DNA of 64,000 nucleotides from an uncultured bacterium. GTDB taxonomy: Bacteria > Babelota > Babeliae > Babelales > Babelaceae. The notes below the pieces were generated by a model. That model saw nothing but the letters and a program-made list of their open reading frames with translations, was not told where the DNA came from and searched no databases. The stretch lies in assembly GCA_963713855.1 (NCBI GenBank), contig OY970209.1, positions 256,001 through 320,000 of the forward strand, read 5' to 3'. Positions 2,430 through 17,029 of this stretch are shown piece after piece (the first letter of the stretch is position 1; every line of letters begins with the position of its first letter). Made by a program: the position numbers and the translations under genes.

Positions 2430-5393
2430 TTAATCTCCATCAACAAAATCACTCAAAGCTGGGCCGTACGCCGTAGGAGGTGGCGGCTGTTGAGCCAAAA
2501 AGTTAAACACCTCAGGACCATTAGTTACCTCAGCAATCGATTCTTTTCCAGCTTGAGGCACCATAGGCCTCGGTGGCGGATAACCGTTTGGCGGAGGCTC
2601 TATAAAACCCTGTTCTGCAGCTGAAAGCATCGGCAGTTCTCCTGGCGGTATACCCGGAGGCGGCATTGGCATAGCCATCATCTCGCCTTTTTCTATAAAT
2701 CCTCCCGGTCCTTGTGGTCCCAAAGGTGGTTCTTCTTGCCCTCTGACAGATCTACGACCACGAGACCTCCTAACTGGAGGAAGTGGAGGCTCAGGTGGCA
2801 TAGCGCCCTCTGGCGGTGCCCGGCGTCGAACACTGCGTCGGCCTCTTCGCTGGGCTCGAGCTACCTTTTCAGCAGAAGGGTTGGTGTTAAATGCCCTCAT
2901 GCGGTCAGCGATTGGATCGCGCTTATCACCAAAGAACCAAGTATTAACAGGATCTTTCAGTTGTTCATCGCAGGTCATTTTATCAAGCAAGTCGTGGGCT
3001 TCAGTCATTTGGGTATTGGTAAATGCCTCAATTCTTCGGCGCGAATGTGGGTTAATAATCTCGGCCGATATAAGAACAAGTAAGCTCGACTTAGCTTGAT
3101 CTTTACGTTTACTTTTGAAAAACCAGCCTAAGATAGGAACATCTCCCAATATCGGCACTTTAAATTCTGTCTCCGTGACAACGTCTTGAGTTATTCCTCC
3201 GAGCGCTAGCACTTGATTATCTTCAACGATAACTGAGGTATCTATTCTTTTCTCGTTACGGTTACCCTGCGCTGGATCAGTTGAGGGGTTGGAGCTATTT
3301 TGTGCCAACGTTGTAAAAGCACTGCTTCTCACAGAAACGACAAGCGTTACAAGACCGTCGGGGCTTATTTGGGGAGTAATTTCAAGAGTCAAGCCCGCCG
3401 TCAAATCCCCAAACGTCGAAACAGGTTGAGTATTTCCGCCTTGTATCGTCGATGTTACAACGTGGCGCACTTCTTCAATCGTTATCTGGGCACGGTATTT
3501 GTGTGTTGTTATAAGAAACGGCTTTGCAACAACTGAAACGTTGCTTATCGATGAAAGAATTTTAAAGATGCCCCAGACTCCAAAAGCATCAGCCCCAAGA
3601 GTTACAACGGTAGATCCAGGAACGTTTGCACTTGCTAAACTTACTAAATTTGCAAGTAATCGTTGCGAACCAGGACCTTTCGGGTTTAATTGTAAGCCAG
3701 CAAAAGCTCCATTAAACGGAAGTCCCGAAGTCTGAAAGTTAATGCCGGGTAAGCCTGTTGCAGCATTAGCAGGCGTATCAGCTCCCAAAACTCCGTTCAA
3801 CTGCGGTATCGCGTTACGAAATTGTATACCGAGTGAGCGCGTATTCGCCCATGTTATGTTAAGGACCAGTGTCCTTATGGCCACCTGCGGCTGCTCTGTA
3901 TCTATTTTTTCTAAAAGATCATAAATCTGCAAATAGTCATCGTACTCAGCGTTAACTATGAGGCTGTTTGTGGACTTTTCAGCCGTTACCGTTACGGTAG
4001 GCTTTAAGAACTTAATGCCACCAATGACACCTCCAAATTGTGTAGCACCTATGGCGCTTTCGGGCTGGAAGCCTTTTAACTCATTAATAATTTGGGCAGT
4101 CGCTTCAGCGTCAATGTATTTTAGGGGATATACGTGCAATGGCGAATAAGGCAAATCAATATCTCTGTCTACCTCTCGACGAATGAACTGCTCAATTTTT
4201 TCAACATTAACGCGGGGTCCTAAGAGAACTAATGAATTAGTGCGTGGATCAGCTATAACTCGAACATTCTCAGTAAAATAGGCGATAGTAGATTGCTTTC
4301 TGCCGCCCGGGCTTAAGCGCGCAAGTAAACTTGATTCCTCTTTGACAAGTGAATCATATAACGCTTTAACCTTTGTTGCATCGGCATTAATAAGCTTAAT
4401 AATAGTTAATGTTTCAGGCAAAATAGGCTTATCTAGCTCCTTAAGAATAGCCAAAATAGAGCGAATATTTGATGCTTTGTCCGTAAGTATTAGAGCATTT
4501 AAATCTTCAATAATAATTGGTGTGCCCGCAATTGTACTTTTAAGGTTATCAGCAACCGTCTTAATAACATTAGGCGTCGTATTCTGGATAAAATAGATAT
4601 AGCGGATTCTAATATCGCTATCAGGCAACATGCCGTAATCGATACCAATAAATAACGGCACAGGATCCCGAGCCGTGCTAAATGCAGAATTACGGGCACT
4701 ATTGGTAACAAGAAACATGCGCTCAACGGGACCTGGTATCACCATAAGCCCAGCCATATCGAGGAACTTAAGAAAAACGTTCCAAGCTTCTTTTCTGTTA
4801 AGAGCACGCTCTGTTTTAAAAGTGAACTTAACTCCCGCAATTTGCCGAGCACCCGGTTCCGGTGGTTTTATAATATCATCCAAAACGAGGCTTAATCCGT
4901 ATTGCTGCTCAAAATAGCGAATGAGGTTAATAAGCTCAGCATTTTCAAAATTTATCTCAATAAAGCGATCAGGCGGTAAGTACTCCCAAGGGTTTAAAAA
5001 TTGTCCTAGATACGCATAATTAGGAAGAGCCTGCTCAGTTCGAGATTCTCCTATAAAAAATGATTTTTCCAAAAAACCTGATGAGCCTGGACCCGGTTTT
5101 ATAATAACAGGCACCGCTTCTTCTTTTTTTACATCAGCCTTGATAGCTTGTTTTAATTTCTCGCTAAATTGCGGCGAGAAAATAGGTGGAAAAAGGTTTT
5201 CGACAAGCGATTTTTCAATAGTTTTTATAGGATCAGCAACAAAAGGCGAGTATTCAGCCGCTACATGATCAAAAGAGCCCAGCATGTTCTCTTTTTGAAA
5301 GAGCGGTACACCAAAAGATTGGCCATAAAGAGTGCTTGATAGAATGATGCTCACCACATAACATCTTACAAAAAAGCTTTTTACAAATCCCAT
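2430..5393 (-). CDS. gspD: Type II secretion secretin GspD with long N- and C-terminal extensions
   Basis: N0 motif INFENAEL, N-domain repeats (ADPRTNSLVLLG; AEKSTNSLIV), secretin motifs LEITPQISPDG and KVPILGDVPILGWFFKS. The track start is 5441; ATG 5393 is more plausible. Confidence 0.92.
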   Translation of the reverse strand: MGFVKSFFVRCYVVSIILSSTLYGQSFGVPLFQKENMLGSFDHVAAEYSPFVADPIKTIEKSLVENLFPPIFSPQFSEKLKQAIKADVKKEEAVPVIIKPGPGSSGFLEKSFFIGESRTEQALPNYAYLGQFLNPWEYLPPDRFIEINFENAELINLIRYFEQQYGLSLVLDDIIKPPEPGARQIAGVKFTFKTERALNRKEAWNVFLKFLDMAGLMVIPGPVERMFLVTNSARNSAFSTARDPVPLFIGIDYGMLPDSDIRIRYIYFIQNTTPNVIKTVADNLKSTIAGTPIIIEDLNALILTDKASNIRSILAILKELDKPILPETLTIIKLINADATKVKALYDSLVKEESSLLARLSPGGRKQSTIAYFTENVRVIADPRTNSLVLLGPRVNVEKIEQFIRREVDRDIDLPYSPLHVYPLKYIDAEATAQIINELKGFQPESAIGATQFGGVIGGIKFLKPTVTVTAEKSTNSLIVNAEYDDYLQIYDLLEKIDTEQPQVAIRTLVLNITWANTRSLGIQFRNAIPQLNGVLGADTPANAATGLPGINFQTSGLPFNGAFAGLQLNPKGPGSQRLLANLVSLASANVPGSTVVTLGADAFGVWGIFKILSSISNVSVVAKPFLITTHKYRAQITIEEVRHVVTSTIQGGNTQPVSTFGDLTAGLTLEITPQISPDGLVTLVVSVRSSAFTTLAQNSSNPSTDPAQGNRNEKRIDTSVIVEDNQVLALGGITQDVVTETEFKVPILGDVPILGWFFKSKRKDQAKSSLLVLISAEIINPHSRRRIEAFTNTQMTEAHDLLDKMTCDEQLKDPVNTWFFGDKRDPIADRMRAFNTNPSAEKVARAQRRGRRSVRRRAPPEGAMPPEPPLPPVRRSRGRRSVRGQEEPPLGPQGPGGFIEKGEMMAMPMPPPGIPPGELPMLSAAEQGFIEPPPNGYPPPRPMVPQAGKESIAEVTNGPEVFNFLAQQPPPPTAYGPALSDFVDGD

Positions 5394-5406
5394 ATAGTTT
5401 ATGCTC

Positions 5407-6459
5407 TTATGTTCGTTGCAACCATGCAGAACGACCTCCATTGTGAGTTCTTCTTGGTTGATTAGTTATTGCGATGCTTTTGTCTAACTGTTGGCCTTGA
5501 ATCTCTTCTCCTTCAGTGACCTTTTGCGGCTGCATAACTTCTTGAGTGAGTGGCTTTAGCACATACAAAAGTTCGTAAGTCCGCTTATTGCGAGTTAATT
5601 TAACACGTATCGACCCGTCAAAGGAAAGATTTTTCACGGATTGATATGCAGCAACACGTTCCTGTGTCGTAAAAAGTGGCATATCGTTAATTGCAGTAAC
5701 AAGGTCTCCACTTTGCAAACCTAAAGCAATACCAAGCGAGTCTGGTGCTATTCTCCCGATACGGCAACCAACGCTTATGCCTTTGTCGAAGGCACCCGTA
5801 ATATCTAGCATATCAACAAACTGGGCGAGGCTCTTTAAACGATTTTTAATTGCCTGTGGATCAACTGCAAACGACCACGTTGTAATTTTTCTGGCAACTT
5901 TATCCCAGCCAGTCTCATGCATAAAAATAGGATCCTCTGAGGCAGCACGAACATTTAAAAAGATAGTTTCTTGCTGACCATTCGATCGAATAAAGACCAC
6001 TTTTTCCCGTTCAATCCGGATAATTTCCGCGTCTTCAAGTATATCACCAACAGAATAAATATCCTCTTTTTTTGTTTTTTCATCAGCCACAATTGCTCGA
6101 TTGATCTTCTCGTCATTGCTTGTAATAATACCTTTTAGGGACACTAAAAGAGGGTCAAGAAATTGAACCTGCGGGATGCGTACGCTTGGTGGTGGTAAAG
6201 CGGAAGGCAAGGGTGGCGGTGTAAGGTTGAAGGTTTCTGGTACGACCGGTTTTAAAGGTTTACGGTACGTTCTAAAAAGATCATTTTCGTAAATACGACT
6301 TAGATCAATTGGTACGCTTTTAAAAGGTAGCGCTATGGTCGCAGAGGGCGTTAAAGATTTACGTGCCGGTGGAACTTTACGTGTTATGAGAATAACACCC
6401 AGAGTCATCAAAAAAAGAAGAGCAAGGCCCAAAACAAGCACCCACAAAGGATTTCTCAT
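5407..6459 (-). CDS. gspC: Type II secretion protein C with PDZ domain
   Basis: N-terminal TM, HR domain (LKGII...AIVAD...YSVGDIL.DAEIIRIEREKVV), PDZ-like LGLQSGDLVTAIN; immediately upstream of the secretin. Confidence 0.85.
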   Translation of the reverse strand: MRNPLWVLVLGLALLFLMTLGVILITRKVPPARKSLTPSATIALPFKSVPIDLSRIYENDLFRTYRKPLKPVVPETFNLTPPPLPSALPPPSVRIPQVQFLDPLLVSLKGIITSNDEKINRAIVADEKTKKEDIYSVGDILEDAEIIRIEREKVVFIRSNGQQETIFLNVRAASEDPIFMHETGWDKVARKITTWSFAVDPQAIKNRLKSLAQFVDMLDITGAFDKGISVGCRIGRIAPDSLGIALGLQSGDLVTAINDMPLFTTQERVAAYQSVKNLSFDGSIRVKLTRNKRTYELLYVLKPLTQEVMQPQKVTEGEEIQGQQLDKSIAITNQPRRTHNGGRSAWLQRT

Positions 6460-6579
6460 ACTCCGCCCTAATTAAGCTTTTATTTACACGTACGCATTAG
6501 AACAATACTCTCGTTTCACAACGAATTTGTCAAGACATAACGCATTTTTAATGCAAAAAATGCGCTCATTTGTTTATTC

Positions 6580-7329
6580 TCAAATGACATCAGTGGTGAT
6601 TGGCCCTTGCTGCACACCGCGGATAAATTGATAGATGTAAGGATTATCCTCGTGCCAAATGCTTTTTGCAGGGCCAAAAAATTTAATAACTCCCTCGTGT
6701 AAAAGTGCCACGTAGTCAGCATACTTAAAGATTTCTGGATCATGCGAAATGACCAAAGATGTAACATCGTAGTCAAGCTGCATTTTATGCATAAGCTCAT
6801 GCACTATGCGGGCGTTAATGGGATCGAGGCCTGCTGTAGGCTCATCATACAGAATGATCTTTGGATTACGAACTAAAGCTCGCGTAATACCAACGCGCTT
6901 ACGCATACCCCCTGATAGCTCACACGGATAACGATCAAGCATAGCAGGATCAAGATTTACAAGTGCGGCCTTTTCCTGAACACATGGTAGAACTGATGAA
7001 AGTGAATAACCTTGCTCAATGAGTGGCAGTGCTATATTTTCCGCTACGGTTAAAGAATCAAGAAGTGCAGCAAACTGAAAGACGTAGCTAACTGTGCTAA
7101 AAATAGCTTCAACAGCTCGAGACGGCGAAGAAATAATTGATCTTTGGTCAATAAGAATATCACCAGACGTAGGCTTTAATAAACCCATAATTTGCTTTAA
7201 TAAGACGGATTTACCTTCACCTGAACGGCCCACGATGCAGGTCATTTTCCCCGCCGGAAAAAAGGCGCTAATACCTGCAGCCACCCACCGATCACCAAAC
7301 TTTTTACGAACATCTACTAATTCAATCAT
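6580..7329 (-). CDS. mlaF: ABC transporter ATP-binding protein, MlaF/Mkl family
   Basis: Walker A GRSGEGKS, signature LSGGMRKRVG, Walker B ILYDEPTAGLDP; adjacent to the MlaE-type permease. Confidence 0.9.
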   Translation of the reverse strand: MIELVDVRKKFGDRWVAAGISAFFPAGKMTCIVGRSGEGKSVLLKQIMGLLKPTSGDILIDQRSIISSPSRAVEAIFSTVSYVFQFAALLDSLTVAENIALPLIEQGYSLSSVLPCVQEKAALVNLDPAMLDRYPCELSGGMRKRVGITRALVRNPKIILYDEPTAGLDPINARIVHELMHKMQLDYDVTSLVISHDPEIFKYADYVALLHEGVIKFFGPAKSIWHEDNPYIYQFIRGVQQGPITTDVI

Positions 7330-8114
7330 CCAAGGCCTGCCTGGAAGAGAAAGGTACTAATAAGGTAGTTAGCAATCAATATAAGAAGACAGCCTATAAT
7401 AACACAGCGTGTCGTGGCTTTACCGATACCCTCAGCGCCACCTTCAGCCGTGTATCCACAATAGGAGCCCGCAATAGCAATAATGATACCAAAAAAAATA
7501 GATTTAATAATACCAACAAGCATGTCAGAAAACTCTGCGATGTTTCTTATGCTCGTAATGTAATGCTCAGCATTAAGCTCGAGAACACGCCCATAAAAAA
7601 AGTAGCCAGCACCAATACCGCAAAACATGGAAAGAATAGTAAGGCAGGGAACAGCGATGACGCTTGCAACTAAGCGTGGAACGATAAGATATTGAACGGG
7701 GTTTATTGCTAATGTTTTTAGAGCATCTATCTGCTCAGTCGCTCTCATGGTTGCTAATTCTGCCGCCATGGCTGATCCCGCACGTGCAGTTACCATAAGC
7801 CCGGTAAGGACCGGCCCTAGCTCACGCATCATACCCATAGCAACAACAGCACCCATAAAACCATGTGCACCAAAACGGCTAAACCCAACGTATGACTGTA
7901 AAGCTAATGCAAGACCCGTAAAAGAACCAGTCAGCAGAATAATGGGCACAGACTCAATACCAATCTTCATGATTTGCGACCGCATCTGGTGAACCTTCAA
8001 GGAGCTTGTACACAAAGCATAGGTCGTCGCTCCAAAAAAAGTTATAAATTGAGTTAGAGCAATAACACTAGAAAGCGTATAGGAGCCTAATTGGGTAACA
8101 AGCCTTAAAGACAT
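7326..8114 (-). CDS. mlaE: ABC transporter permease, MlaE family
   Basis: RELGPVLTGLMVTARAGSAMAAELATMRATEQIDAL signature and GGAEGIGKATT. Confidence 0.92.
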   Translation of the reverse strand: MSLRLVTQLGSYTLSSVIALTQFITFFGATTYALCTSSLKVHQMRSQIMKIGIESVPIILLTGSFTGLALALQSYVGFSRFGAHGFMGAVVAMGMMRELGPVLTGLMVTARAGSAMAAELATMRATEQIDALKTLAINPVQYLIVPRLVASVIAVPCLTILSMFCGIGAGYFFYGRVLELNAEHYITSIRNIAEFSDMLVGIIKSIFFGIIIAIAGSYCGYTAEGGAEGIGKATTRCVIIGCLLILIANYLISTFLFQAGLG

Positions 8115-8116
8115 AC

Positions 8117-8464
8117 CTACGAAGCTTGTACAGGGGGAGGTGTAACAGCTTTTGTCTCAGGAGCAACTTCTTTAGCCGCAGGCTTTGGCTCATTAACTTT
8201 AATGTAGCGTATGTCATGCAGATAAGAAGATTTTAATAGACCAAGACCCACCGAGCCAAACATAAATGCAGCTCCTAAGACCCAGGTTATCTTTTGAAAG
8301 AGGTCTTGTCCTCCTGAGCCACCAAAAAGCATCTGGGTACCACCACCCAAATTACCAAGCCCCATGCTCCCTTTACCCTTCTGGACAAGCACAAGAGTGA
8401 TCAAGGATACGCATACAATAATAAAAAGCGTTAATAAGATTCCATAAAGCATCGAATACCTCAC
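8117..8464 (-). CDS. secG: Preprotein translocase subunit SecG
   Basis: LVLVQKGKG..GLG.LGGG...LFGGSG...LFQKITWVL and two TM helices. The true start may be ATG 8452. Confidence 0.9.
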   Translation of the reverse strand: MRYSMLYGILLTLFIIVCVSLITLVLVQKGKGSMGLGNLGGGTQMLFGGSGGQDLFQKITWVLGAAFMFGSVGLGLLKSSYLHDIRYIKVNEPKPAAKEVAPETKAVTPPPVQAS

Positions 8465-8719
8465 ATACGTAGTTTCTTATTAGAATAACGCTTTTTTAGC
8501 GATCTTGCAAAAGCATATGAGCGTAAAGCCCTTACGTACCTCAAAAGACGTAGAGCACCTTTAAAAAGCGGTACCACAAGATCAGATTTTAACACTTGAT
8601 TGGGCCCTCAGTCACCATTATCTCGGCTTGTATAATCGTTCATTAATCGGTAGAATTTTAAAAGACAAATTGCTCATAGTGTCTGCACAAGCATCATATT
8701 TACTAATAAAAGGCATATT

Positions 8720-9220
8720 ATGAAAAATACTCTAGTACTGTGTGCACTGCTCTTTATCGGAGCATATTCTTCGGGTAACGAAAATGTGGCCGAACTTAAA
8801 AAAGCTGTACAGCGGCAAAACGAGATGCAGGTTAAAAATGCTCTTGCAAAAGTAGGCAAATTAAGCCTATTTAATAAGCGTGAAATTGAAGAGGCCGCTC
8901 GAGTCATCCTTGATCATCTCGTAAAGGAAGAATCTAACTCGGGAACCATTTCATACCTTATACCAAGTATCGCAACTACGATCATTACAGGAATCATCAC
9001 AGCCGCAATACTGAACACCAACTACAACATAGACGATTGTCAATGTTATACAGCGATCACCACGGCGATTGTAGCCTTATCAGCAACTATTGCTTCACTA
9101 GCTATTATTATTAGCGCTGCAAAAGGCAACACCAGCTTGAAGTATGACAAAGAACTGCCGTTAAAAGTCGAGAATGCACGCACTATTCTTGAGCTCATAC
9201 AAGAAATACCTACAACGTAA
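8720..9220 (+). CDS. Exported hydrophobic-hairpin family protein, paralogue 1
   Basis: Signal peptide, ELKKAV...VKNAL helical segment, two TM helices with a Cys-containing loop, C-terminal amphipathic helix; similar to the four neighbouring ORFs. Confidence 0.75.
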   Translation: MKNTLVLCALLFIGAYSSGNENVAELKKAVQRQNEMQVKNALAKVGKLSLFNKREIEEAARVILDHLVKEESNSGTISYLIPSIATTIITGIITAAILNTNYNIDDCQCYTAITTAIVALSATIASLAIIISAAKGNTSLKYDKELPLKVENARTILELIQEIPTT

Positions 9221-9268
9221 CCGTTAAAGTTCCTAGAACATAATCATCTTAAAAAATAAGGATTTCTT

Positions 9269-9739
9269 ATGAAAAACTTTTTTCTCGTGGTCGCATTTCT
9301 TCTTAACTGCGCTCTTTGCTTTGGCGATACTGCCCAATTAGAAAAAGCTATTACTGCACAGGATCTAAACCAAGTAAAGCAGATTCTCAAAACCCTTGGC
9401 ACCCTCAGCTTATATAATAAGCGCGTTGCGGAAGAGATGGCTTTAACGAAATTCGACAATTTGCAAAAAGCAGACAATGATAATAGTGATCACAGCAGCT
9501 TAGTAACGATTATATCAACGATGCTTACCATAGCTGCAGGAGTTGGAGTTCAAAATGTAGCAAAATGCAGAGACGAATGTTTATGCGTTAGCGGCGTTTT
9601 AGTTTTAGGTGGAATAGGTATAGCAAGTGCGATTAGCGCTATGAGAAGCTTTCTCAGCATTAATGATCCTAAATTTAAGCAACTTCTAGATAATGCCGAA
9701 AAGATTCTTCAAGCAATTAAAGATACCCCAACAGCTTAA
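9269..9739 (+). CDS. Exported hydrophobic-hairpin family protein, paralogue 2
   Basis: Shares LEKAI...VKQIL..LG.LSLYNKR and NAEKILQAIKDTPT with paralogue 1; AAGGA RBS. Confidence 0.75.
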   Translation: MKNFFLVVAFLLNCALCFGDTAQLEKAITAQDLNQVKQILKTLGTLSLYNKRVAEEMALTKFDNLQKADNDNSDHSSLVTIISTMLTIAAGVGVQNVAKCRDECLCVSGVLVLGGIGIASAISAMRSFLSINDPKFKQLLDNAEKILQAIKDTPTA

Positions 9740-9750
9740 GTCTTATTTTT

Positions 9751-9774
9751 GAGGAGGATTTTACAATCCTCCTC
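9751..9774. terminator. Stem-loop after paralogue 2 (terminator or processing hairpin)
   Basis: GAGGAGGATT-TTAC-AATCCTCCTC perfect 10-bp stem; no clear U-tract. Confidence 0.45.
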
Positions 9775-9848
9775 TGCCATCCCAACTTTAACGATATCCA
9801 CAAAAAATTCACTCGCGTTCAAAAGTTATCTCTAAAATAAGAGAACGG

Positions 9849-9877
9849 TTGAGCAGTTTTTAAATAAGAGCTATATT
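9849..9877 (+). promoter_or_regulatory. Sigma70-like promoter of paralogue 3
   Basis: TTGAGC-N17-TATATT upstream of ATG 9929. Confidence 0.5.
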
Positions 9878-9928
9878 AAAAAGTCAAATAGCTACTAGTT
9901 ACATATATTCACAAAAAAAAGGCTTTTT

Positions 9929-10399
9929 ATGAAGAACATTTTAATGACTCTTATAGTACTTCTTTCAAGCACTATTTGCTCCTGCCAGGTGAGTGAGTTA
10001 AAAGTAGCTATAAAAGAGCACAACGCTCAAGAAGTAAGAATACTACTCACCGTGCTTGATCACCTTAGTGTACATGACAAAATGACTACTCAAGTTCTTG
10101 CCAAAGAATCGCTCAATGAAGCATTAAATGACCTCACGGACGAACAATTAAACATATTTGCACAGATTCTTTTAATAGCAGCCACCTTTTCCCTTCCTAT
10201 TGCCACTTGCATCGCCGGGTGGTTCCAATGCGAACAATGCCATCCTAACTGTGGACTGGTACTACCGCTGATACTTGTAATGTTCTTGGGTATTTCAAAG
10301 CTCTGCGAAAACGTTAGCAAATCTGCTGAGCCCGAACAACTAAAAGTAGAAGCTGCAGAAGCGATTGTTCAAATGATTAAAGGCGCAAAAATAGCTTAA
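9929..10399 (+). CDS. Exported hydrophobic-hairpin family protein, paralogue 3
   Basis: Signal peptide, ELKVAIKEHNAQEVR, two TMs with a CEQCHPNC loop; near-identical ends to 11156-11614. Confidence 0.8.
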   Translation: MKNILMTLIVLLSSTICSCQVSELKVAIKEHNAQEVRILLTVLDHLSVHDKMTTQVLAKESLNEALNDLTDEQLNIFAQILLIAATFSLPIATCIAGWFQCEQCHPNCGLVLPLILVMFLGISKLCENVSKSAEPEQLKVEAAEAIVQMIKGAKIA

Positions 10400-10490
10400 T
10401 TAAACTTACCATCTTGCACTTGCTTTTTAAATAGATACCCTGAGAAGGACCTATGATATGACTGACTCATCTTAAGCGAGAAGGATTTTT

Positions 10491-11006
10491 ATGAGGAAGA
10501 TGTTCTTTCTAGGGTTGCTGCTGATTACAAACACCTTTTGCTCTGGCACCTTAGAAAAACTACAAAAAGCCATTAAGTCTCAAGATCAAAATCTTGTAAA
10601 CCAGGCTCTTCAAGAGCTCGGTCAGATTAGTTTAGACGAAAAACGCATTGCTATGAAAATCGCCAAAGAGGCTTTTAACGAGGTAAAAGAAAAGTTTTTC
10701 GCCAAACTTATGAATCAATCTCTTCAATTGTTAGGATGGATGGTAATTATAGGTGTAGCAGGACTAGCTATTAAATATCAAAGATACTTAATACCATTAG
10801 GACCCGTTCGTTATTTGGCTGTATTTGCAGCCATCTGGTCAATAGTGACAGCACTTCTTGCGATAGTGATAACAGCCTACGTTCTTGTTAAAACTCATAC
10901 GTCTGGAATGAACGCACTAGATAAGGCCAAAAGAATTAGAAAAATGATTACAAACCGCCACCTTGCAAATTTTGTTCAAAGTCAAAATGGCAAAGATGAA
11001 TTGTAG
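10491..11006 (+). CDS. Exported hydrophobic-hairpin family protein, paralogue 4
   Basis: LQKAIKSQD...V.QAL.ELG.ISL.EKR motif shared with paralogues 1-3; two TMs. Confidence 0.75.
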   Translation: MRKMFFLGLLLITNTFCSGTLEKLQKAIKSQDQNLVNQALQELGQISLDEKRIAMKIAKEAFNEVKEKFFAKLMNQSLQLLGWMVIIGVAGLAIKYQRYLIPLGPVRYLAVFAAIWSIVTALLAIVITAYVLVKTHTSGMNALDKAKRIRKMITNRHLANFVQSQNGKDEL

Positions 11007-11018
11007 CCGCTTTTTCTA

Positions 11019-11048
11019 GAATTAGGGGAGGGTAACCTCCCCTAATTC
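11019..11048. terminator. Intrinsic terminator hairpin between convergent genes
   Basis: GAATTAGGGGAGG-GTAA-CCTCCCCTAATTC, 13-bp stem with a GNRA-type loop, followed by ATTTTT. Confidence 0.75.
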
Positions 11049-11155
11049 ATTTTTATAAAGATTCCTTACAATTGAATAGATTGATTACTGATGAACGAGT
11101 CATATGACCTCTAATGGCATCTATTTAAAAAGCAAGTACAAGAAGTTAAGTTTGA

Positions 11156-11614
11156 TTAAGCTATTTTTGCGCCTTTAATCATTTGAACAATCGCTTCTGC
11201 AGCATGTACTTTTAGGTGTTCGGGGGTAGAAAATCCCATAGCAGTTTCATAGAGCCTTGAAATACTCAACGATAGTGCTAATATTACCATTATATAAGTT
11301 CCACAGCATAGAGACTGTGGGCGAAACCACAGGGCGATGAAAGTAACAGGAAGTAAAATGGCAATCGGTAATAAAGCCGGTGCTAATTTATCGAACTGTT
11401 CACCGCTGAGTTCGTTTAAAGCTTCTTCGAACGATTCTTTGGCAAGGTCTTGAGCAATCCTTTTGTCATATCTACTAAGGTGATCAAGCTCAGCAAGGAT
11501 TTTTCTTACAGCTTGAGCATTGTGCTCTTTTATGGCTACTTTTAACGCACCCACATCGCAAGAACAAATAGTGCTTGCAAGAAGTACTATAAGAGTCATT
11601 AAAATGTTCTTCAT
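11156..11614 (-). CDS. Exported hydrophobic-hairpin family protein, paralogue 5 (inverted copy of paralogue 3)
   Basis: Start set at ATG 11614 (MKNILMTLIVLL) by match to 9929; identical C-terminus AAEAIVQMIKGAKIA. Confidence 0.8.
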   Translation of the reverse strand: MKNILMTLIVLLASTICSCDVGALKVAIKEHNAQAVRKILAELDHLSRYDKRIAQDLAKESFEEALNELSGEQFDKLAPALLPIAILLPVTFIALWFRPQSLCCGTYIMVILALSLSISRLYETAMGFSTPEHLKVHAAEAIVQMIKGAKIA

Positions 11615-11686
11615 AAAAAGCCTTTTTTGTGAATATGTGTAACTAGTAGCCATTTGACTTTTTAATATAGCTCTTTAAAAACCGCT

Positions 11687-12115
11687 TTATAATGATTCTT
11701 TGAATGCTTCAAACTCGTGTTTGTTTTGCTTATAAATCCTCATAGCTTCTTTATCTCTAGCTTTAAACATGCGACGCCACTCTTCAACTTGGCGTTCGTG
11801 CAATTTCATCATGTGATGCAGCTTTTTATCGAGTAAACGATCACTAAAACCATGCTGCTTGAGCATTGCTAAGCCGTGGATATGAAAATCAGCCTTTTCA
11901 TCATGCTGCTTTTTAATAAGCGCTATTTCTGTATCATTAAAATGACGCTTCAGGTCAAACCAACGATCCATATGACCTTTTTCCATCTCAGTATACGCTC
12001 TCATAGCATCAAGAGGATCCATTCTGTGCATATGCCTCATACGTTTCATGGGACAATCGTCAGCGAATGCCATGCCTGTAAGAGTAAGCGTAAGCGCGAA
12101 AAATAACTTCTTCAT
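11687..12115 (-). CDS. Exported His/Met/Lys-rich helical protein
   Basis: GGAGG RBS before ATG 12115; signal peptide ending AMAFA-like (GMAFA|DD); highly charged helical mature part. Confidence 0.75.
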   Translation of the reverse strand: MKKLFFALTLTLTGMAFADDCPMKRMRHMHRMDPLDAMRAYTEMEKGHMDRWFDLKRHFNDTEIALIKKQHDEKADFHIHGLAMLKQHGFSDRLLDKKLHHMMKLHERQVEEWRRMFKARDKEAMRIYKQNKHEFEAFKESL

Positions 12116-12353
12116 AAAAACCTCCAACTACTAAATTGATTCCTTTAAAAGTAGTTCCAGCGTAACAGTTCGGGCCACAATATTTCAATAGAATACTTTT
12201 ATTAAAAAATAAATGCGGTTTCTATTCATCAGGGTACTTGATGGAAAATGGCTTAAATTTAACCTTTTTTACCCATTTTTCATGAAAAAACTCTTGTTGG
12301 ACCTATTTAAAAAATGCTATTTTGATTTTATATATATGAAAAGAAAATCACAA

Positions 12354-12617
12354 ATGATGACCAAATGTACTGCAGCTTTACTCTTCATTTTTTTATCTTC
12401 GACGCTCTTATATGCTGGTTTTTATCCCAGCTTTAAACCCATTGTTGGGCGCACAGTACAAGAGCGCGAATTGAATGCGCACAGCCAATGCACAACCATC
12501 TGCGCATCGCGCAAAGGCTGGAATGGTAAATATAGCTGCTCGGAAAAGGCATTTGTTGATGCATACCATATAATGCGCTACCAAGTTTTCGGGTGTCAGT
12601 GTGAATGCCTGGACTAA
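12354..12617 (+). CDS. Small exported Cys-rich protein with one MVL-like (mannan-binding lectin-like) repeat
   Basis: Signal peptide, then C-x3-C...GWNGKY...CQCEC. Start moved from 12213 to ATG 12354 (12336 also possible). Confidence 0.55.
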   Translation: MMTKCTAALLFIFLSSTLLYAGFYPSFKPIVGRTVQERELNAHSQCTTICASRKGWNGKYSCSEKAFVDAYHIMRYQVFGCQCECLD

Positions 12618-12645
12618 TAAAATTATTGACGTATAAAGGAGACTT

Positions 12646-13086
12646 ATGAACACATTCTATAAAATAGCTGCCGCGCTTCTTGTGGCAACATGCACACTGC
12701 AATTGCAGCCAGCTGAAACGCCAAAACCCGAAAGAAATTCAACGTGGAGACGTCCCCATTTTGCCTATTCCAATACCGAGATGAATAGAAATTGTAATGA
12801 TATTTGTAGGCGAAGGGGACAAGATTGGACAACCAATTGGTCAGATAAATGGTTTGAAGGCCAAAAATGCGAATGCAAGAACCGTCCAAAATGGTCGTTC
12901 TTAGGGCCCGCACAGGAGACAAAGCGGGTTGATATCGAATACAGACCAGCTGGTGCGATTACAAACTCGCATGACCTACACGAAGCTTGCACAAAAAAAT
13001 GTGAAGATTACGCCGAAAAATACACGGGTAATTGGGTCCGCCAATCTTTTCTTGGCTATAAGTGCGAATGCCAAAAACTAAGTTAA
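12646..13086 (+). CDS. Exported protein with two tandem MVL-like Cys-rich repeats
   Basis: AAGGAG RBS; signal peptide; repeats CNDIC...WTTNW...KCEC and AGAITNSHDLHEACTKKC...YTGNW...KCEC. Confidence 0.65.
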   Translation: MNTFYKIAAALLVATCTLQLQPAETPKPERNSTWRRPHFAYSNTEMNRNCNDICRRRGQDWTTNWSDKWFEGQKCECKNRPKWSFLGPAQETKRVDIEYRPAGAITNSHDLHEACTKKCEDYAEKYTGNWVRQSFLGYKCECQKLS

Positions 13087-13092
13087 GTTTTT

Positions 13093-13124
13093 AAAAAGGG
13101 AAGGTGCATGCCTTCCCTTTTTTT
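13093..13124. terminator. Bidirectional intrinsic terminator
   Basis: AAAAAGGGAAGG-TGCATG-CCTTCCCTTTTTTT between convergent genes, with T-tracts on both strands. Confidence 0.85.
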
Positions 13125-15681
13125 ATGCAAACACAAACCTATCCCCTTCAACACTTATCGTAATATGTTTAAGACCGGGATGCTTGAGCATAAATTCTGC
13201 CATCGGTCCTGTCAGGTACTGCTGTATAGCCCGTCGTAAAGGTCGAGCACCAAAAACTGGATCATAGCCAAGTGTCGCAATTTTATCTGCTACCGCGGGC
13301 ATGCTTGTCAATACAATATGCTGCTCTAAAAGCCTATGTTTAAGATCACCAATCTGGATTTCAGCAATACGCTTTACATCCTCATGTGTAAGAGTCTTGA
13401 AGAACACGATAGAATCAATACGATTGAGAAACTCGGGCTTAAAGGTCTTTCTTAAAAGCTCATGTATATGTTCTTTAACCGCATTTGTAAGACTACCTGC
13501 TTCCAAAATTGCATCTGAGCCAACGTTCGAGGTCATAATGATAATGGTATTTTTAAAAGAGACCCTATTTCCCTGGCCATCGGTCAAATGCCCTTCATCA
13601 AGTATTTGAAGAAAGACGTTAAATACATCTGGATGGGCTTTTTCAATTTCGTCAAACAACACAACGCTATACGGGTGTCTACGAACCGCTTCAGTAAGCT
13701 GACCACCCTCTTCATAGCCGACATATCCTGGAGGTGCACCAATAAGACGCGCTACCGTGTGCTTTTCCATATACTCTGACATATCAATTCGGATAAGCCT
13801 TTTTGGGTCATTGAATAGAAAATCAGCCAATGTTTTTGCAACTTCGGTCTTACCAACACCGGTGGGACCTAAAAACAAGAACGAACCGATAGGTCTATTA
13901 GGATCAGTAAGTCCGGTCCTATGCATCTGGATAGCGTGCGTGATCTCGTCAATCGCTTCATCTTGGCCAATAACTCGTTTTGTAAGTATTGAGCGCATAT
14001 TTATGAGTTTTTCAGCCTCACTGACTTGCAGCTTTTCAGCCGGTATACCAGTCCAACGCGATAGAACGGTAGCAACATCGTTTTCATCAACTTCTTCTTT
14101 TATAAGCGTGTGTGGCAGGTGCTTAATAGCATCCTGCTCTTTTGCAAGATCTTGTTGCAACTTAGCAAGCTTTCCATACTTAAGCTCGGAGGCTTTTGCA
14201 TAATCGCCTTCCCGCTCAGCCTGTTGGAACTTGGTTTGTACAGTTTCAATCTCTTCTTTAATTTTTTGAATACGCTGAAGGGGCTCTTTTTCAGCCTTCC
14301 ATTGCGCAAGAAGCGCCATATGTTTTTCTTTAAGCTGCGAAAGCTCTTTTTCAAGCTCTGAAAGTCGCGTTTTAGATACCTCATCCGTTTCTTTTGTCAG
14401 AGCCACTTTTTCGATTTCAAGTTGGCGTATCGTACGCTCTAGTGCATCAATTTCAGCTGGATGTGATTCAATCTCCATCTTTACCATGGAGGCAGCCTCA
14501 TCAACTAAGTCAATCGCTTTATCGGGCAAGAATCGATCAGGAATATATTTACTCGAAAGCAGCACAGCATCAACAAGCGCCTGGTCTTTAATACGAATAC
14601 CATGATGTAACTCATAGCGCTCTTTAAGCCCGCGCAAAATAGAAACTGCGTCTTCTATCGACGGCTCTTCTACAAGCACGCGCTGAAACCGGCGCTCCAG
14701 CGCTGCGTCCTTTTCAATATACTTTTTGTATTCTTTAACCGTTGTTGCCCCAATACAATGGAGAGTTCCTCGAGCAAGGGCAGGCTTTAGAAGGTTTGAT
14801 GCGTCCATGCCACCTCCGTGACCTCCAGCACCGATGAGCATGTGAAGCTCATCAATAAAGAGAATGACGTGATCATGCGTGTCTTCAATCTCTTTAAGAA
14901 TTCCTTTTAAACGCTCTTCAAACTCGCCCTGGTACTTGGTGCCCGCTATTAAAAGTCCTAGGTCCAGCGAGTAAAGCGTGCTTCCACGTAAACTTTCAGG
15001 AACGTCGTTATTGACGATACGTTGAGCGATACCTTCAGCAATAGCCGTTTTTCCAACACCCGGTTGACCTATAAGCACCGGGTTATTCTTTGTTCTACGA
15101 GAAAGAATCTGTATAACTCGCCGCACTTCCTCATGACGCCCTATGACAGGATCTAATTTGCCCTGACGAGCAGCCTCAGTAAGGTTTTGGCAAAATTTTT
15201 CAAGCATCTGGTAGTGCCTTTCGGCATTACGTGAATCCACTTTTTTGCCTTTACGCATTGTCTGCATCGTTGCTAAAAGAGCCGATGCTGTAAAACCACT
15301 CGCTTTGAAAATATCCCTTATGGAAGATGGTAGGTCCTTACTTTCTGAAAGAGCTATGAGGATATGCTCTATACTTACGTATTCATCATGTAAGCGGGAA
15401 GCTTCTTCTTCAGCTCGATTTATAACGTTTTGTAAAGCGTGGTCAGCAGCTAGTTGACCGCCTGAACTACGTGGAAGAGCCGCTAACTCACGGTCTGCCA
15501 ACACCTTCAACTGCTCAACAGGCACATTCATAAGCCTATATATCGAAAGGCAGAATTCATCGTCAAGCGTTACACGAAAAAGATGAAGCGGTGTCAAAAC
15601 AGGATTTTTAAGCTGTGTCGCTTTCTCAATTGCCGCATTAAAAAGCTCTTGTGTAAGCGTGGTAAATTTTTCAGGCTTCAT
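13123..15681 (-). CDS. clpB: ATP-dependent chaperone ClpB
   Basis: Clp N domain; two AAA+ modules ([16 protein letters not shown]); middle coiled-coil domain (ASELKYGKL); [24 protein letters not shown]. Confidence 0.97.
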
Positions 15682-16967
15682 GCGCGGATCCCTTTAATTC
15701 GTAAAAGCTTATGATAGCTTATCGCAAAATGGTGAGCGTAGTCACGTAAAGCTATAAGAAGCTGACCTAAAGCTGATTTATTATCTAATACAAACCCTTC
15801 TGGTATAGTTGAGGCAAAAAGACGCTCCTCGCGCTTTGCTAAGCTTATAAGGCACGCATTTGGAACAATACTGAGCACCGCACCTAGTTGCCCTTTACCC
15901 CCGTCAATCAAAACGACGTCAGGCATATCCCCTGCGCGGTAGCGTCGAAGCACCGCTTCTTGCAACGCCGCGTAATCATTTTGCTCATCTATGGTACGAA
16001 TTTTAAAACGACGGCAGCTTTGCTTATCTGGGCCTTTCTGGTTATAACGGACACATGAAGCGACCATGTCCCTACCTTGAAAGTGCGAAACATCAAAACA
16101 ATCTATGCTGCGAGGAATAGCAGCAAGCCCTAATAGGGACTTTAATTCCTCTAACCCACGAGCGTACGTATCTTGACTGCATGAGGTAGTTCCTTGCGCG
16201 CTAAAAACGTCAGTGCCTTCCTTGTTCCTTCGAGCATCCGCTATATGCGCACGCAATGTTGCAAAAATAGTAGGCAGATTTTCAAGATAGCTCACTAAAT
16301 TTCGCGCTTTTTCGTAATCGCGCTCAGAGCTATAACGCGCTATGTCTGTCCGCACAGAACGTTCAATACTTTCATACTTGCCCTCTAGAGCTTCTTTTGC
16401 AAGCTCAACTCGTTTTGTATACTCTTCTGAGTCAAATGTTTTTAAACAGCTACCAGCACAGTTACCTAAGTGGTAATCAAGGCATCCACTTTCCATGCGT
16501 TTTGCACATATTCTTAACCTAAAAGTTCGCATAAGGTATGCGTACGCGACGCGCGCTTGTTTTTTGTGAATAAAGGGACCGAAATAAACGCCCTTTTCTT
16601 TCTTATTGCGCACTAGTTTTACTTCAGGCAAGGTACCACTCGTAAAAAGTATGTAAAAGAATGGGTCACCATGCTTTAAGAGCACGTTAAACTTGGGCTT
16701 ATATTCTTTAATAAGCTGGGCTTCTAAAAGCAAAGCCTCAAGCTCGGTACCCGTTAATATGTAGTCAAGTGCAGCGTATTCAGCTATAAGCGATTCGATT
16801 TTCCAGTCCTCATAACGATTCTTAAAGTAAGAACGTATACGAGCACGAAGACACTTCGCCTTTCCTATGTAAATAACACCTAAGTCCTTATCTTTAAAAA
16901 GATACACTCCTGGAAGCTCAGGTATAGCGCGAATAAAATCTGGTACGCCCATAACGTAATGTTCCAA
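15678..16967 (-). CDS. uvrC: Excinuclease ABC subunit C, short form
   Basis: GIY-YIG domain (PGVYLFKD...IYIGKAKCLRARIRSYF), Cys cluster, UVR helix, RNase H-like domain (IDCFDVSH; LIDGGKGQL; LRDYAHHFAISYH). No C-terminal HhH. Confidence 0.9.
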   Translation of the reverse strand: MEHYVMGVPDFIRAIPELPGVYLFKDKDLGVIYIGKAKCLRARIRSYFKNRYEDWKIESLIAEYAALDYILTGTELEALLLEAQLIKEYKPKFNVLLKHGDPFFYILFTSGTLPEVKLVRNKKEKGVYFGPFIHKKQARVAYAYLMRTFRLRICAKRMESGCLDYHLGNCAGSCLKTFDSEEYTKRVELAKEALEGKYESIERSVRTDIARYSSERDYEKARNLVSYLENLPTIFATLRAHIADARRNKEGTDVFSAQGTTSCSQDTYARGLEELKSLLGLAAIPRSIDCFDVSHFQGRDMVASCVRYNQKGPDKQSCRRFKIRTIDEQNDYAALQEAVLRRYRAGDMPDVVLIDGGKGQLGAVLSIVPNACLISLAKREERLFASTIPEGFVLDNKSALGQLLIALRDYAHHFAISYHKLLRIKGIRA

Positions 16968-17029
16968 CCTAAAAAAACTCGTTTATAACTTAGTGTACAA
17001 AATATGCAAATAATTTCAATAAGAATAGA

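Follow-up and report, generated by a model that had tools for sequence, protein, structure and literature searches.

Do two inverted paralogous genes with near-identical ends and a strongly diverged centre form a cassette that flips in the manner of a shufflon, or are they the trace of a single past event? The pair in question, p3 and p5, lies in a 64,000-nt stretch of DNA from an uncultured bacterium of the Babelota, a phylum living inside protists (the window: positions 256,001 to 320,000 of contig OY970209.1, assembly GCA_963713855.1). It belongs to a cluster of five paralogues, p1 to p5, which encode small predicted membrane proteins and form one clade in our tree (support 0.90). An original prediction for this DNA had proposed shufflon-like variation. 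We consider it likely that the locus records one old inverted duplication in a tandem, babelin-like gene family, with a fast-evolving helical hairpin and some conversion of the gene ends, and that it is not a programmed switch.

The inverted pair itself is real. Paralogue p3 (9929–10399, + strand, 156 aa) and its inverted duplicate p5 (11156–11614, − strand, 152 aa, frame intact) are both present as the open reading frames first reported, and their proteins are 60–61% identical; p1, p2 and p4 are older paralogues with 21–24% identity to p3. The DNA arms 9852–10456 and 11100–11686 share 78.2% identity across 606 nt, and a blastn search found no third copy in the 1.52-Mb genome. The ~75 bp of common upstream DNA claimed originally was measured as a match of 69/77. 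The identical first 36 coding nucleotides are contained in a 50-nt identical tract, 9915–9964 (+) and 11579–11628 (−), which spans the ribosome-binding region and the first 12 codons, and the identical 3' end was recovered as a 49-nt tract, 10352–10400 (+) and 11155–11203 (−), comprising the last 15 codons and the stop codon. Further identical runs between the arms are 24 nt long at 9866 and 19 nt at 10418. From 29–30 identical positions per 30 columns at the ends, p3/p5 identity falls to 11–16 per 30 at 10157–10276; this diverged centre, its indels and the peptides quoted for it had been described correctly. In the predicted structure a long helical hairpin, with hydrophobic segments at residues ~77–95 and ~108–126, has the variable core of p3 (codons 71–135, 10139–10333, +) as its hydrophobic tip. 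What the original prediction overlooked, in an otherwise sound description of the pair, is the DNA beyond the stop codons.

Past the p5 stop codon the inverted strand copies the spacer between p3 and p4, matching it at 40/48 and then at 14/18 positions. With these ~70 nt of homology, the left arm (upstream DNA, p3 and the p3–p4 spacer) covers 9852–10472 (+) and the right arm (the copy of the upstream DNA, p5 and the copy of the spacer) covers 11090–11686 (−). At 11063–11086 (−) lies a relic of a deleted inverted copy of p4, which matches p4 at 22/24 nt (10713–10736, +). The score of the relic against p4 was reached by 0/4985 random 47-mers of the genome and by 0/5000 shuffles, p1 to p3 gave background-level scores against the relic, and only two places in the genome come within 4 mismatches of its 24-mer, namely the relic and p4. 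A relic of p4 behind p5 implies that the duplicated segment held p3, the p3–p4 spacer and part of p4, and the match to 10713–10736 places its ends at 9852 and at 10736 or beyond; a later deletion would have taken out ~240 nt of the copied p4. The locus can thus be read as a fossil record of the way in which an inverted gene joins a tandem family. A 9/10 match between 11049–11058 and p4 was too short for use, and an antisense role of the relic was rejected: it has p4 sense on the p5 strand and would therefore form no duplex with the mRNA of p4.

A perfect 13-bp DNA hairpin (11019–11048; −24.8 kcal/mol, terminator-like on the + strand) lies close to the midpoint of the inversion, and the inner end of the inverted copy is 14 nt from it. 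The outer end of the right arm abuts the stop codon of gene X (11687–12115, −), an unrelated gene for a His/Met-rich protein of 142 aa with a predicted signal peptide, and there is no terminator between gene X and p5. In G001, a genome of the same genus, the stop codon of a gene X homologue is followed after 22 nt by a 14-bp hairpin, with the T tail on the same side. The simplest history would begin with the order p3–p4–hairpin–gene X. A template switch during replication would have placed an inverted copy between the hairpin and gene X, and the ~240-nt deletion would have removed most of the p4 copy and broken the near-palindrome. Paralogue p5 would have survived, probably by read-through from gene X, while its helical hairpin diverged under relaxed, probably partly positive selection, and occasional conversion of the RecA type may have evened out the ends; RecA is encoded in the genome. 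The tandem inversion duplications of Salmonella are reportedly of a similar kind, an inverted duplication with later asymmetric deletion.

Palindromic junctions undergo asymmetric deletion (PMC4689423). As in the inverted duplications of origin-dependent inverted-repeat amplification (ODIRA) treated there, the copy adjoins a short palindrome and the inner part of one arm has been deleted. Unlike in template-switch or fold-back inverted duplications, no third copy is left, the copy ends short of the hairpin by the 14 nt given above, and the event is old.

That the pair was created by the assembly is scarcely credible. The two copies, each with an intact frame, are divergent at 22% of sites; the genome is assembled as a single N-free contig of 1,521,901 nt; the longest identical run of 50 nt is too short to confuse an assembler; and the decay of the p4 relic points to age.

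A programmed inversion, in which a site-specific recombinase would flip the middle and swap the core behind each promoter, has the inverted geometry on its side, and the consequences of a crossover, including a promoter swap by one in the 5' arms, had been rightly described. A sigma-70-like site (TTGAGC-17-TATATT) lies ahead of p3 at 9849–9877 (+); it is a consensus match only, and such sites are no commoner in the region than in shuffles (12 vs 13.3). The inverted copy keeps the −10-like box and not the −35-like box, and a flip would therefore change the promoter context. The genome also encodes a single tyrosine recombinase and a single large serine recombinase whose gene is split, possibly through a sequencing error. 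However, the window contains no match to Resolvase, Phage_integrase or IS110/Piv, as had been stated for recombinase genes in general, and an IS110/Piv match is absent from the whole genome. The only Phage_integrase match, the tyrosine recombinase at 409347, is ~140 kb away (the window is 256001–320000 in genome coordinates), and the only Resolvase match, at 1495442, falls in an apparent island. The arms, moreover, are gene copies: in 5000–17000 there is no family of repeated short inverted sites but a single pair of 600-nt, gene-length arms, and both p3 and p5 are whole genes with their own start regions, not partial cassettes. A shufflon combines an adjacent invertase with several short crossover sites (PMC11852207). 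The locus resembles the R64 shufflon (Rci, sfx; PMC11852207) in that inverted repeats flank a gene segment and a crossover would exchange coding parts; it differs in having no adjacent invertase, no multiple 31-bp sites and no silent partial cassettes, and in being unconserved in relatives.

The comparison of orientation across relatives covered 32 loci from 23 of the genomes with matches, members within 3 kb being counted as one cluster. All 24 arrays of at least two members were single-stranded (139 genes from 18 other genomes), and no comparable inverted repeat was found at a family gene among the surveyed loci. In the same-genus genome G001, secG has a different neighbour, and the family is represented by one or two isolated members at other places. 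No second copy of the locus emerged from metagenome scans, which used p3 and a 35-nt pattern, or from a scan of genome contigs with a neighbour gene. With none of the 24 arrays inverted, no linked invertase, and the p4 relic accounting for the inversion as one past event, we regard programmed switching as very improbable, and the locus is therefore not to be counted as a new shufflon. As separate observations, the serine recombinase lies in three frames (Resolvase, Recombinase, Zn ribbon; L076:5437–6741, genome ~1495436–1496740) at the margin of an island-like region that holds a toxin–antitoxin-like pair, its gene being either broken or misread in sequencing, and a 418-nt self-inverted match of 68% identity occurs 5 kb from a family array in another genome (L028:13413–13818, G004:C4).

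The divergence of the core had been attributed to diversifying selection or to conversion of the ends. Over the whole gene, the ratio of nonsynonymous to synonymous rates (dN/dS) between p3 and p5 is 0.82–0.89 at a synonymous divergence (dS) of 0.29–0.35, and dN/dS is therefore not uniformly low, the outcome named beforehand as speaking against the proposal. For regions picked after the data had been seen, a model with shared dS gave a core dN/dS of 2.4–3.0 (p 0.006 and 0.001 against 1), and one with free dS gave silent divergences of 0.20, 0.34, 0.53 and 0 from start to end, with no significant differences in dN/dS. Silent divergence varies between regions (p 0.014; 0.04 without codons near indels), with dS of 0.17 at the ends against 0.76 in the core (p 0.002), and a free-boundary scan of third positions gave p ~0.01. 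When multi-hit codons were set aside and only codons alike in their first two bases were compared, the silent contrast was 3/39 vs 11/56 (p 0.14), and run tests gave p 0.30 and 0.34. What stands of the proposal is that the pair has not diverged like an ordinary duplicate under purifying selection and that replacements are far more frequent in the core than at the ends. Two sequences cannot separate selection from conversion. Some homogenisation of the p3/p5 ends is plausible, and the silent-site evidence for it is modest, with p 0.14–0.34 in the conservative tests.

Conserved ends around a variable core are a trait of the whole family and require no inversion. The pattern that the original prediction tied to the inverted arrangement is genuine, and single-strand arrays show it as well. 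Core dN/dS (here for residues 63–135) is higher than end dN/dS in 13 of 14 independent paralogue pairs, and core dS significantly exceeds end dS in 4/14, namely in p3/p5 and in three single-strand pairs. In all four of the other clades compared, dN/dS is about twice as high in the hairpin (0.38–0.54) as in the N-terminal part (0.18–0.27). Eight orthologue pairs of two sister species have kept their cores (core dN 0.00–0.16); in seven quartets, 0–2 codons group members by genome versus 46–94 by orthologue; and N-terminal and hairpin trees are identical or nearly so in 4 clades. Mosaic members do occur in G041/G048, with N-terminal parts 0.04–0.06 apart and cores 0.39 apart, and young pairs share flanks. 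The family pattern is one of slow birth-and-death turnover in which the hairpin changes faster and exchange is occasional, not of fast antigenic switching. In one array, the first members look truncated or broken (L016:5964–6724, G016:C16), as birth-and-death turnover expects.

These data also bear on an alternative in which the ends would be kept as crossover blocks for RecA and whole cores exchanged or imported, as in homology-block cassettes of the esaG/tipC or lpl-like type, with p3/p5 providing low-frequency swaps. The mosaics, the flanks common to young pairs, the free-boundary scan and an end dS below core dS in p3/p5 and three further pairs, all in the same direction, are what such a system would produce. 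We nevertheless judge it improbable: the silent contrast and run tests do not reach significance, poor alignment inflates core dS, there has been almost no conversion since the split of the sister species, trees are near-congruent in 4 clades, and no donor core was found elsewhere in the genome. As in the tipC/esaG immunity arrays, tandem paralogues here combine homology blocks with variable parts (PMC9484751). In tipC, conserved 5' and 3' blocks surround a variable centre (PMC9484751), and in lpl of Staphylococcus aureus a conserved centre lies between variable ends (PMC2568036); the babelin-like arrays are nearer to tipC, the lpl pattern being reversed. Unlike in these systems, there is no cognate toxin, no toxin-like neighbour being recognised in the window, recombination looks rare, and a lipobox occurs in just 2/144 family members, on which count a lipoprotein nature was rejected.

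Several points weigh against our account of a single old duplication, or against parts of it. A fold-back at the DNA hairpin with two deletions also fits the inversion, and the junctions are too old to show microhomology. At one surveyed locus (L078), two members occupy opposite strands at a distance of 4.5 kb, beyond the 3-kb rule, with no DNA-level repeat. Both orientations of our locus could coexist in the population, and identical tracts of 49–50 nt suffice for a RecA crossover, so rare flips would be expected anyway. For p3/p5, one dN/dS with region-specific dS fits better than shared dS with region-specific dN/dS (log likelihood −931.9 vs −935.1), and conversion or core replacement may therefore outweigh selection in this pair. 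The mean hairpin dN/dS in relatives is below 1, so that positive selection is not shown family-wide.

The family to which the cluster belongs is likely that of the babelins, as judged from a sequence motif read by eye. Babelins were named in a 2015 supplement, where their genes alternate with Ulp1-like peptidase–AAA genes. Their likeness to our family lies in the same phylum, a length of 176–181 aa, one predicted signal peptide, two to three predicted membrane segments and an expanded family, and the Babela genes 103 and 105 likewise share ends and differ in the middle. Our family differs in its head-to-tail arrays, often beside gltX, without Ulp1-like peptidase–AAA neighbours. A strict N-terminal motif is present in 30/144 family members and in 0/1359 other open reading frames of the genome; a relaxed form is found in all five window genes, 67/144 members and 3/1359 other frames. 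The assignment is weakened by the fact that genes 103 and 105 match the motif by eye only, the pattern having been written after their sequences were seen. No named Babela protein was among the family-search matches. The genome has no Peptidase_C48 (PF02902) match, although this is a derived family that Pfam may miss, and one member in another genome (G043) adjoins an 833-aa AAA protein.

Nothing passed the cut-off in Pfam (144 members), NCBIfam (5) or PADLOC (11), a PDB sequence search (best E 0.021) left the family unnamed, and Rfam gave one chance-level match (E 0.22). Term searches of PMC6561590, PMC4776705 and PMC12172432, which did not extend to supplements or to Figure 5 of PMC4378268, returned no account of the arrays, and a literature search for the word 'babelin' returned unrelated papers only. 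The arrangement is ordinary, then, and the family under-described: it has been amplified repeatedly in a phylum of protist parasites, and its name was found in one supplementary table only.

A profile search returned 259 representatives at E ≤ 0.001, the named matches coming from Candidatus Dependentiae. In a survey that scored at most 14 candidates per genome, the family was present in 55/251 genomes of the phylum Babelota/Dependentiae and in 22/39 within the same bacterial family. Clusters hold 1–19 genes, and copy number has expanded with genome-specific clades in the tree; 9/36 clusters adjoin gltX, which is not the array site in the present genome. The largest array seen has 19 single-strand members beside gltX (L060:4898–19434, G042:C26), and 14 of the 29 members of that genome in the tree form one pure clade. 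Besides the cluster, the present genome has three more distant members, one of them with two domains: a 420-aa protein with two tandem family-like domains (L090; G000:C1:860212–861474, −). Two-domain forms of 328–335 aa also occur among the representatives (P0036, P0101).

What the proteins might do was approached through structure prediction. An AlphaFold2 model built from 144 sequences (predicted local distance difference test score 91, predicted template-modelling score 0.73) has helices at residues 2–29, 33–43, 48–100 and 106–151, with strand bridges at ~46 and ~155 that would join the ends. The layout of p3 is a predicted signal peptide, a helix pair, the long helical hairpin and a C-terminal helix, and column entropy peaks at residues 91–110. 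A hydrophobic N-terminus and two internal segments are found in p2, p3 and p5, and two internal segments in p1 and p4. The hairpin helices contain 38% Gly/Ala/Ser and, on a crude scale with three control proteins, are marginally hydrophobic (median scores +2.1 and +2.6), with both scores below 0 in 0/144 members. The stretch after the second helix is rich in basic residues (K/R 0.18, D/E 0.04); the loop has no such enrichment (0.16, 0.14). The composition and the charge pattern lean towards insertion after export, from the side of the cap. The N- and C-terminal helices would form one conserved soluble cap, and the hairpin would confer partner or membrane specificity. We tentatively suggest from this model, with somewhat less than even confidence, that the proteins are Sec-exported and embed their hydrophobic hairpin in a membrane of the host interface. 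If host membranes are indeed where they reside, they would be leading candidates for remodelling of the host cell by Babelota.

The same features can be read as those of ordinary two-helix inner-membrane proteins with a periplasmic cap and a cytoplasmic loop, whose core drifts and has no host-facing role. The five hairpins of the window are more hydrophobic than the family median, enough to stop transfer, which fits plain inner-membrane proteins; transmembrane helices tolerate substitution, the mean hairpin dN/dS of 0.38–0.54 is below 1, and TMHMM predicts 2–3 segments for Babela genes 103 and 105. Yet across the family the hairpins are marginal, the basic residues are the reverse of positive-inside for that topology, and drift sits poorly with genome-specific clades, 1–19 copies per cluster and the high p3/p5 core dN/dS under shared dS. 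We therefore think such a role rather unlikely; it concerns the proteins and is compatible with a one-time inversion.

Structure searches gave only generic long helical hairpins in the comparison with pore-forming hairpins (Foldseek best E 0.36–0.47; VIA-align best Z 9.9), and the ESM Atlas had no usable match by features, the best template-modelling score being 0.61 to an unnamed cluster. The N-terminal helix pair weakly resembles one ankyrin repeat: hhalign against 120 repeats of the genome gave E 9.4e-4, a probability of 22% and a score of 16.4, where 30 column shuffles reached no more than 10.8, with 0/144 single members passing. The same helix pair has weak PDB matches in Bd3460 (E 0.021) and RNase L (E 0.49), both of which we take to be ankyrin proteins. 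Pfam ankyrin matches were absent from all 144 members, and the model has one helix pair only, without tandem 33-residue repeats. A link to ATAD3-like ATPases was rejected (1/144 members, E 5.7e-4), the long weak matches in this genome being ankyrin proteins or the two-domain member. The genome itself holds at least 53 open reading frames with ankyrin-like repeats, by a profile built from that genome, and two gltX-like genes.

With regard to export, a type II secretin and GspC are encoded 2–6 kb upstream of the cluster, a proximity that shows no link. For B. massiliensis, no secretion system other than type II is reported (PMC4378268); in the present genome, which is 91% complete, no SctV/FlhA (FHIPEP) match and hence no type III secretion was found. 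Like the chlamydial Inc proteins (PMC3048545, PMC3290821), the family is lineage-specific, clustered and fast-evolving, has a two-lobed hydrophobic region and belongs to an intracellular bacterium; unlike the type III-exported Inc proteins it has predicted Sec signal peptides, and the likeness is one of features. It is tempting to speculate, although we hold the composite picture to be doubtful, that babelins form a phylum-wide polymorphic coat, exported by Sec and type II secretion, in which an ankyrin-derived cap carries a Gly/Ala/Ser-rich hairpin into host vacuole or mitochondrial membranes. They would be a type III-independent counterpart of Inc, whose repertoire (1–19 genes per cluster) might help to set the host range, and the present locus would add a recombinase-free, RecA-driven hairpin swap between two promoters.

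The remaining members of the cluster are p1 (8720–9220, +, 166 aa), an older family member, its sister in the tree p2 (9269–9739, +, 156 aa), and p4 (10491–11006, +, 171 aa), which shares the strand of p1 to p3. Two or three Cys residues lie in or beside the hairpin loop of p1, p2, p3 (10208–10243) and p5; by comparison, an automatic count found two or more in 7/144 family members. The Cys residues of the window paralogues may form a local disulfide or metal site. The neighbours of the cluster are secG, gene X and clpB. Upstream, at 2430–6459 (−), the secretin (1003 aa, with a long Pro-rich tail) and GspC are followed by an ABC ATPase/permease pair and secG. Homologues of gene X occur in 8/40 other genomes of the bacterial family; its product passed no protein-family cut-off, is helical and gives the impression of a periplasmic metal-binding or chaperone protein. 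Beyond it, 12348–12617 and 12646–13086 (both +) encode two small Cys-rich proteins, predicted to be exported, in which C-x-C motifs recur; the product of 12348–12617 matches the mannan-binding lectin MVL family below threshold (E 0.0015).

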